This document shows, piece after piece, positions 11,168-11,663 of a stretch of DNA of 44,890 nt; the first letter of the stretch is position 1, and each line of letters opens with the position of its first letter. Made by a program: the position numbers and the translations under genes. Origin of the DNA: Escherichia phage Ivi; the sequence record PV841871.1, one strand, 5' to 3'. The notes under the pieces are model-generated. The model had not been told where the DNA came from. It saw only the letters and a program-made list of their open reading frames with translations, and made no database searches.

Positions 11168-11554
11168 ATGAATCTTAAAGCAACTGTCGTAGCCGGAGCA
11201 TGTTTCGTCGTCCTAGCCTACGCACACGGCATCTATCAATACCGCAGCGGCTGGGGTGAAGGCCGTGCTAATCTCGTTTCGCAGCAACAGCAGAAAGCAC
11301 AGGCTGAGCTGACGAAGAAAACACAACGGCAGCAGCAGGATGAATCAAAGGCCGCCGCCGCTGACAACGAAGGCAAGACGAAATCAGAGGTGATTACCCG
11401 TGAAGTCGTTAAGTACATTAAAACGCCTGGCCGCAGCGTGTGCACTTTCGACGATGCTCGCGTCCTGCTCAAGTCCCACGCCGTTGCCAACGCCAATTCC
11501 ATCCCCGGATACGACGATGATGCAGCCGCCGTGCAAACTGGCACCGCCAAGTAG
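11168..11554 (+). CDS. i-spanin (Rz-like)
   Basis: N-terminal TM segment, Gln/Lys-rich periplasmic region; overlapping out-of-frame lipoprotein ORF. Confidence 0.6.
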   Translation: MNLKATVVAGACFVVLAYAHGIYQYRSGWGEGRANLVSQQQQKAQAELTKKTQRQQQDESKAAAADNEGKTKSEVITREVVKYIKTPGRSVCTFDDARVLLKSHAVANANSIPGYDDDAAAVQTGTAK

Positions 11555-11663
11555 CGACGCTGACGAGGATTTAGCTATCGACGTTCAGAACGCCGAATGT
11601 GTACGGCAACTGAGACTGAAAGTGTTCATGTTGCAGGATTACGTGAGGAATATTCTGGAATAG
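11400..11663 (+). CDS. o-spanin (Rz1-like outer-membrane lipoprotein), overlaps the Rz 3' end in the +1 frame
   Basis: Lipobox L-A-S-C after a signal peptide, proline-rich mature region; GTG start after GAGGTGA. Confidence 0.6.
   Translation: MKSLSTLKRLAAACALSTMLASCSSPTPLPTPIPSPDTTMMQPPCKLAPPSSDADEDLAIDVQNAECVRQLRLKVFMLQDYVRNILE

Follow-up and report, generated by a model that had tools for sequence, protein, structure and literature searches.

Two-component spanins combine an inner-membrane subunit (i-spanin) with a lipoprotein of the outer membrane, the o-spanin, and their mechanism in phages lambda and T4 has been summarised, together with a census of their families, by Kongari et al. (2018, BMC Bioinformatics 19:326; PMC6139136). 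By the criteria of Summer 2007 and Kongari et al. 2018, the two genes can be adjacent, overlapped or embedded; the overlapped architecture, with an o-spanin gene that begins inside the i-spanin gene and extends past it, has LysB/LysC of P2 as its prototype (PMC6139136). Jersey is the largest overlapped family listed for both subunits in that census, with 27 members that include the Salmonella phages Jersey, SETP3 and SE2 and the Kagunavirus coliphages K1G, K1H and K1ind1-3, and it is characterised by genes that overlap by 155 bp and by an o-spanin in which Cys45 and Cys67 are constant (PMC6139136). The locus considered here is a pair of overlapping genes of Escherichia phage Ivi (record PV841871.1), contained in a stretch of 44,890 nucleotides (nt), hereafter the window, that is the genome of a Kagunavirus coliphage (Guernseyvirinae), complete and circularly permuted; with a probability of about 0.9, this pair is a two-component spanin that falls within the catalogued Jersey family (Table 1).

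Regarding the i-spanin, its ATG is preceded by AAGGGGG at 11157-11163, and the product is a small protein with a single hydrophobic segment at residues 5-23 (nt 11180-11236; Kyte-Doolittle 19-residue mean of 1.69), which agrees with the open reading frame (ORF) with an N-terminal transmembrane segment described in the original prediction, made from the sequence alone. The remainder is predicted to be largely helical; the low-confidence AlphaFold model has a long helix at residues 3-84, a break, and a second helix at residues 94-107. The models of both spanins were computed from single sequences and used for secondary structure only, which is consistent with the published picture. Among the PHROG families, the i-spanin matches phrog_2536, 'Rz-like spanin', with E = 2e-54, and weakly but consistently three further Rz-like families.

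As for the o-spanin, it is read in the +1 frame relative to the i-spanin, from a GTG whose Shine-Dalgarno sequence lies within the i-spanin gene; the two genes share 155 nt, and the o-spanin runs 109 nt beyond the i-spanin stop, so that the pair is overlapped and not embedded. Codons 1-22 encode a signal peptide, MKSLSTLKRLAAACALSTMLAS, followed directly by the cysteine of the lipobox LASC, Cys23 (11466-11468), with Ser at position +2; n-region, h-region, lipobox cysteine and the lack of Asp at +2 together constitute a predicted outer-membrane lipoprotein signal. The mature part starts with a Pro-rich linker (34% Pro over residues 24-52) and ends with a C-terminal helix (residues 55-86) that is conserved; the further cysteines shared with the relatives are Cys45 and Cys67. 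The AlphaFold model reproduces this layout, with a signal helix, a disordered Pro-rich linker at residues 24-54 and the C-terminal helix, the latter fairly confident (predicted local distance difference test, pLDDT, of 77-90). The best-matching PHROG families are again of the 'Rz-like spanin' type, phrog_5672 (E = 5e-30) and phrog_1267 (E = 2e-18). In a six-frame scan of the 44.9 kb window for lipoprotein signals, this ORF was the sole match, with an expectation of 0.10 per genome in shuffled sequence; the lipobox, the Pro-rich part and the 109-nt extension were all found where the original prediction had located them. An alternative lipobox, AAAC at Cys14, was rejected: it would leave a signal peptide of just 13 residues, and Cys14 is missing in 14 of 48 relatives, while the lipobox at Cys22/23 is universal.

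Comparison with 48 related loci from IMG/VR, in which the identity of the i-spanin goes down to 61%, indicates that the second frame encodes a protein. The +1 frame is open with the same geometry in all of them but one (L038), and the lipobox cysteine, Cys45 and Cys67 of the o-spanin, as well as Cys92 of the i-spanin, occur in 48/48 loci, so that each subunit has a periplasmic cysteine available, the disulfides themselves being predicted; the lipobox varies among LASC, LSAC, LNGC, LSGC and ITGC. The o-spanin start is GTG or ATG, with a GAGG core in the Shine-Dalgarno sequence of nearly all loci, the exceptions being one locus with GGAGTC and the separated variant L038. The ratio of nonsynonymous to synonymous changes (pN/pS), computed on 39 distinct gap-free sequences, is 0.105 in the o-spanin frame of the 109-nt tail that belongs to the o-spanin only, the two remaining frames giving 2.47 and 1.10; as for the i-spanin frame, it is 0.30 outside the overlap and 0.41 within it. 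Both reading frames are maintained by selection, and the o-spanin is considered a real gene because the lipoprotein frame is under purifying selection.

The exceptional locus, L038 (IMGVR_UViG_3300045988_013393, 2501-3089), derives from a Kagunavirus-like contig and has separated spanins, with an i-spanin of 118 amino acids (aa) and a stand-alone o-spanin of 81 aa; the genes overlap by just 14 nt, and the leader and scaffold flanks are otherwise near-identical. Its o-spanin has an unrelated signal peptide, MTMNKLFLSAVIIGITGC (lipobox ITGC), and a mature domain that is 48% identical to that of Ivi. This arrangement fits the 'separated' variant of the Jersey family described in the literature, and it argues, independently of the overlapped loci, for the lipoprotein as a real gene product.

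Assignment to the Jersey family followed the published rule, under which members share ≥40% identity across ≥40% of the periplasmic domain (PMC6139136), applied to both subunits. The i-spanin is 63% identical to Jersey_09 of Salmonella phage Jersey over 125 aa, and the o-spanin is 65% identical to Jersey_10, the 'putative spannin' of the same phage, over 88 aa; the 155-bp overlap and the Cys45/Cys67 pair are also present. In addition, the gene lengths (387 and 264 nt) and the extent of the overlap are identical in the two phages, as are the position upstream of the scaffold gene and the conserved C-terminal helix of the o-spanin. The differences are limited to the lipobox, which is LNGC or LSGC with Cys22 in the aligned Jersey-like loci and LASC with Cys23 in Ivi, and to the extra, non-conserved Cys14 of the latter; none of them is substantive.

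The spanin finding is correct but ordinary, since the pair is already known, annotated and catalogued: it is found in public annotation as well as in the spanin census of 2018 and a Kagunavirus genome paper. The i- and o-spanin are annotated at the same place in Snoke (CPT_Snoke_008/009) and Shelanagig (gp08/gp09). The region 10800-12000 matches 335 phage records with hosts including Escherichia and Salmonella, and it has 99.8% DNA identity with Escherichia phage vB_EcoS_fPoEco01; both ends of the window are contiguous in a related genome. In fPoEco01 (MT711526.1, 5940-6435) and many other deposited genomes, one 'putative spanin' only is annotated, and the coding sequence (CDS) of the overlapped o-spanin is omitted. 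What differs here is the annotation and not the biology, and overlapped o-spanins are known to go unannotated through a bias of gene callers (PMC6139136). The practical value of having identified the pair again is that of an annotation check, several deposited relatives, fPoEco01 included, having no o-spanin CDS.

As for lambda, its Rz and Rz1 resemble the Ivi proteins in being, respectively, an inner-membrane protein of type II whose periplasmic domain is helical and a Pro-rich outer-membrane lipoprotein read in the +1 frame, both with periplasmic cysteines and a presumed role in membrane fusion. However, Rz1 is fully embedded and without secondary structure, and the lambda pair directly follows S and R, whereas the Ivi o-spanin overruns the i-spanin, ends in a conserved helix, and is encoded 7.85 kb from the holin and endolysin genes. 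The Pfam scan (E ≤ 0.1) matched neither Ivi protein to the families of lambda Rz or Rz1, and from their sequences they are not relatives of these proteins but belong to the separate Jersey family; consequently, the 'Rz/Rz1' label of the original prediction holds in the functional sense and not by sequence family. PseT.3/PseT.2 of T4 are also unlinked from holin and endolysin, and they function normally; the T4 o-spanin is larger than lambda Rz1 and has a predicted C-terminal helix (PMC6139136). Differently from Ivi, the T4 genes are separated without overlap, belong to another sequence family, and all lysis genes are scattered, while the Ivi holins and endolysin remain in a cassette. Finally, P2 LysB/LysC belong to a different sequence family and lie inside the P2 lysis cassette. 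A unimolecular spanin of the T1 gp11 type was rejected: apart from its signal peptide (maximum Kyte-Doolittle value of 1.06, residues 3-21), the 87-aa lipoprotein has no hydrophobic stretch, and the C-terminus is predicted to be an amphipathic, charged helix.

Several points weigh against the assignment. The pN/pS of the o-spanin frame is ∼1.0 inside the overlap, which means that the i-spanin frame dominates there; in this part, the case for the predicted o-spanin is made by the conserved open frame and the signal peptide, not by the substitution pattern. A Pfam scan of both spanins (E ≤ 0.1) gave no match to an Rz or Rz1 family, the leftovers being a sub-threshold DUF2514 (E = 0.025, 15 bits versus a cutoff of 26) and the unrelated Nucleoside_tran; an NCBIfam search of both proteins returned nothing relevant, and a sequence search of the PDB found no solved relative of either. 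The structural models are of low confidence, with a mean pLDDT of 57 for the i-spanin and 62 for the o-spanin. The positive-inside rule is ambiguous for the i-spanin, which has K4 on one side of its membrane segment, and R26 and R33 on the other. The boundaries of the transcription units discussed below are predicted. Finally, the literature search found no experimental test of any Jersey-family spanin, and the assignment of Kongari et al. is bioinformatic.

The spanin function proposed for the Ivi pair is drawn from these features and from the family assignment. By analogy with lambda Rz/Rz1 and T4 PseT.3/PseT.2, the i-spanin would be anchored in the inner membrane with an N-in/C-out topology, and the o-spanin would receive its lipid at Cys23 and, because of the Ser at position +2, go to the outer membrane. 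The two subunits would bind through their periplasmic domains into disulfide-linked complexes that cross the peptidoglycan mesh; once the holins have opened the inner membrane and the endolysin has removed the peptidoglycan, such complexes would fuse the inner and outer membranes and release the progeny.

Table 1. Features of the Ivi window discussed in the text, ordered by position
Feature	Position (nt)	Strand	Details
Holin	2265-2573	+	phrog_2359
Holin	2566-2838	+	phrog_2508
Soluble lysozyme-type endolysin	about 2816-3319	+	PF00959, E = 1e-24
Promoter-like sites after the endolysin	3435; 3657; 3781		first two strong, each ahead of a terminator
Hairpin/T-tract terminators after the endolysin	3497-3521; 3725-3757		
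Terminase, portal, head-morphogenesis and decoration genes	5342-10241		between cassette and spanins
Strong terminator	10245-10265		
Clamp-like gene	10270-10791	-	between decoration gene and spanin leader in Kagunaviruses
Operator-like repeats	10862-10913	+	TATTCCAGCTATTCC, GGAATAAACTATTC, palindrome CTATTCGAATAG; upstream of and abutting the -35
Predicted sigma-70 promoter	10914-10942	+	TTGACT (10914-10919), 17-nt spacer, TG-a-TAAGCT (extended -10); putative function
Structured 5' leader RNA domain	10946-11056	+	P1 hairpin and long composite stem-loop, ∼110 nt
GC-rich hairpin	11123-11142	+	GCCCCGC-TTTAAG-GCGGGGC; 25 nt ahead of the i-spanin ATG; poor U-tract (TTTACTTATC)
i-spanin gene	11168-11554	+	ATG start, 128 aa
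Shine-Dalgarno sequence of the o-spanin	11387-11394	+	GAGGTGAT; 5 nt ahead of the GTG, within the i-spanin gene
o-spanin gene	11400-11663	+	+1 frame, GTG start, 87 aa
Invariant element	11647-11719	+	last o-spanin codons and spacer to scaffold: GGAATATTCTGGAATA, GGAATAATTTATTC, TTGACA (11692-11697), hairpin 11703-11719
Scaffolding protein	11746-12447	+	phrog_206, E = 2e-54 (scaffold/capsid block); Snoke annotation
Major capsid protein	12450-13499	+	Snoke annotation; followed by terminator 13515-13536
Second, paralogous promoter and leader copy	43218-43360	+	78% identity over 147 nt, E = 6e-25; 102 bits with covariance model R1

The holin/holin/endolysin genes, for which the original prediction gave the interval 2265-3319 at ∼8 kb from the spanins, were recovered there, with cassette annotations that agree in Snoke, fPoEco01 and fFiEco02; from the endolysin stop to the i-spanin start there are 7,849 nt, and no spanin candidate was found beside the endolysin. 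The separation is common to all the relatives examined, Kagunavirus and Jerseyvirus alike (Snoke, fFiEco02, fPoEco01, Shelanagig); the Kagunavirus genome paper already remarks that the spanins lie apart from holin and endolysin (PMC9825357), and in the Golestan genome the spanins are ORF7/8 and the holins and endolysin ORF66-68 (PMC7203180). Spanins and cassette are very likely in different transcription units, as originally proposed, because predicted terminators, a reverse-strand gene and a dedicated promoter lie between them. A simple promoter/terminator scan missed this conserved promoter and the two terminators after the endolysin, which were found by eye and by conservation. As for the location of the pair 'at the head of the head-gene operon', it does head the scaffold/major-capsid sub-unit, with the head-decoration region on one side and the scaffold and capsid genes on the other, but the genes from terminase to decoration are upstream of it, and a second promoter-like element precedes the scaffold gene.

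The original prediction added that a separate transcription unit for the spanins may affect lysis timing, an improbable reading in the light of what follows. The units are indeed physically separate, with terminators and promoters in between, and the operator-like GAATA/TATTC repeats described below occur on the promoter of the spanin unit only. However, the established model assigns the timing to the holin alone and has the spanin complexes accumulate beforehand, restrained by the peptidoglycan until the wall is degraded (PMC6139136); an effect on timing is unsupported because timing is a property of the holin. Moreover, paralogous promoter-leader modules head both units, which argues for coordinate and not staggered control, and a coarse RNA-seq time course of a Kagunavirus puts the lysozyme and capsid genes in one 'middle' class, the spanins not being reported there (PMC12645636); neither this RNA-seq paper nor the Snoke genome announcement mentions spanins. 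Owing to the split, the spanins would accumulate along with the structural proteins, and they are not expected to set the time of lysis.

Even less probable is that the membrane protein and the lipoprotein serve a role outside lysis, such as superinfection exclusion or receptor masking in the manner of T5 Llp, and that the outer membrane is disrupted otherwise. The missing experimental test of the Jersey family, the distance of the pair from holin and endolysin, and the lack of sequence similarity to lambda Rz or Rz1 would all suit such a role. On the other hand, T4 demonstrates that unlinked spanins are normal, and the Ivi pair has, as far as prediction goes, every defining feature of a two-component spanin: a membrane protein of type II, helical in its periplasmic part, an overlapping gene for an outer-membrane lipoprotein, and conserved periplasmic cysteines. 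Furthermore, the weak PHROG matches consistently tie the i-spanin to Rz-like families, the lipoprotein-signal scan leaves the genome without another spanin candidate, and a separate superinfection-immunity gene is annotated elsewhere in the relatives; spanin function in the Jersey family is the reading retained.

The weakest alternative, that the +1-frame lipobox ORF is an untranslated chance frame and the 128-aa membrane protein alone is real, could appeal to the near-neutral pN/pS across the 155-nt overlap and to the records with a single 'putative spanin', but it appears nearly excluded by the selection on the 109-nt tail, by the frame, start, Shine-Dalgarno sequence and lipobox cysteine kept in every overlapped locus, by the separate gene of L038 for the same protein, by the low chance expectation of a lipoprotein signal, and by the gene-caller bias (PMC6139136) that explains the absent annotation.

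Upstream of the i-spanin gene is a spacer of 376 nt that contains the predicted promoter of the spanin unit, conserved in the aligned Kagunavirus- and Jerseyvirus-like loci; the simple scan overlooked it because its -10 matches just 3/6 positions. Transcription of the pair probably begins at this conserved promoter of its own, passes through a structured leader and, at least in part, also covers the scaffold and capsid genes. In an unfitted alignment, the leader pairing holds in 87% of cells, versus 28-46% in slid controls, with two-sided changes at 7 pairs versus 0-2; among 27 distinct sequences, the pairing is 92% versus 30-40% in the controls, this alignment being model-fitted and biased toward the structure. 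The covariance model R1 scores 123 bits on the spanin-side leader, and it finds the leader upstream of the i-spanin gene in every locus with full flanks that was searched, namely, 45 viral-contig loci plus Jersey, fFiEco02 and Shelanagig. Within IMG/VR, the leader was confirmed only in Guernseyvirinae-like contigs, most of 41-45 kb; as for a 15-mer scan for the leader core, 21 of its 74 loci were discarded as chance matches in unrelated contigs without a covariance-model match. Rfam gave no credible family for the leader or the hairpins, neither with the whole window at the gathering threshold nor with 10780-11760 at E ≤ 10. At the DNA level, 173 of 180 phage records show 95-99% identity in the leader, including Salmonella phages whose i-spanin protein is just 72-76% identical, and the leader is more conserved than the flanking genes.

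The conserved leader ends in the GC-rich hairpin of Table 1, which has compensatory changes of C-G to G-C and of G-C to A-U in Jersey-like loci; its role may be that of a leaky terminator or of a hairpin that stabilises the RNA. A 36-aa ORF at 10962-11072, deposited as a hypothetical protein in Snoke, was rejected as coding: its ATG is lost in one related locus (L027) and in the paralogous copy, and in Jersey-like loci indels disrupt its frame. The likeliest explanation is a non-coding RNA region annotated by mistake. Further ORFs are annotated in the spacer, Jersey_08 in Jersey and gp07 in Shelanagig.

The second copy of promoter and leader, with compensatory differences in its inner hairpin, sits in a divergent intergenic region and heads a plus-strand block, which spans the junction of the window ends and has holin-holin-endolysin as its last genes; the same block is seen in fFiEco02, which likewise has two leader copies. 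Therefore, both units that bear lysis genes start with the same module, a promoter of the form TTGACT, 17-nt spacer, TGnTAAGCT and the leader behind it. Two copies are present in Kagunavirus genomes, and the Jerseyviruses examined have the spanin-side copy only; a second copy in Shelanagig was not accepted, the partial match being marginal (49 nt, 37007-37055, E = 0.047 with filters off).

The leader can be likened to the lambda pR'-6S RNA-tR' region and to the put RNAs of HK022. As with pR'-6S, a promoter is followed by a structured transcript of ∼190 nt that ends in a hairpin just ahead of Rz-type and head genes; as with putL and putR, there are two paralogous promoter-proximal structured RNAs per genome. 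However, the Ivi leader has no sequence or Rfam relationship with either, and the U-tract of its hairpin is poor. It could possibly be a leaky-terminator/antitermination arrangement, an RNA stabiliser or a protein-binding leader. That the ∼110-nt leader is a hitherto undescribed cis-acting regulatory RNA that co-regulates the two separate lysis units is a tentative and rather doubtful proposal, for which the evidence consists of conservation, paralogy and covariation. If it were true, through put-like antitermination or recruitment of a phage factor, the leader would drive both lysis halves and the capsid genes through the hairpins or terminators at 11123, 13515 and 44844. The conserved, duplicated leader RNA and the operator-like repeats are the only part of the locus that may be new, and the leader offers a testable handle on late and lysis gene control in these widely used therapeutic-candidate phages.

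As for the repeats, GGAATA/TATTC motifs flank the spanin pair (10862-10913 and 11647-11697), and among those that abut the spanin promoter are GAATAAACTATTC and CTATTCGAATAG, both palindromic. In its exact form, GAATA-N3-TATTC is found twice only in the genome, at 10895 and 11679, and each copy lies immediately before a TTGAC(T/A) hexamer or no more than a few bases from one. The set downstream of the pair overlaps the final o-spanin codons (RNILE*) and shows no variation among Kagunavirus- and Jerseyvirus-like loci. The repeats are probably binding sites for a regulator. The whole element at 11647-11719, the invariance of which was judged on 29 distinct sequences, also has the hairpin ATCCGGG-AGG-CCCGGAT, without a U-tract; in Jersey-like loci, AT is changed to CAC in a compensatory manner, paired with GTG. 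Possibly, the element acts as a second promoter, dependent on a regulator, of the scaffold and capsid genes.

Regarding the surroundings of the cassette, a gene for an HslV/proteasome-like (Ntn-hydrolase) protein, 1708-2205, is directly upstream of the holins, a position kept in Snoke and Shelanagig. The 524-nt gap after the endolysin contains TTGACA-18-AATAAT followed by the hairpin 3497-3521, and TTGACA-17-GATACT followed by the hairpin 3725-3749 with T8; these two short promoter-to-terminator units would yield RNAs of ∼55-65 nt, possibly small RNAs or decoy/attenuated early promoters, and the promoter-like site at 3781 precedes an ORF at 3844. The reverse-strand gene upstream of the spanin leader resembles a sliding-clamp fragment, with a weak Pfam match to DNA_pol3_beta_2 and the PHROG label RusA-like/processivity factor; the Jerseyviruses Jersey and Shelanagig lack it at the matching position, their leader coming directly after the decoration gene. 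Finally, a 31-nt element, CCAATATAATAGG(G/A)TACTATTC..., with a perfect TATAAT, is repeated at 10817-10847 (minus strand) and 43526-43556 (plus strand), ahead of the clamp-like gene and of ORF 43588, respectively, and it looks like a second shared promoter type.

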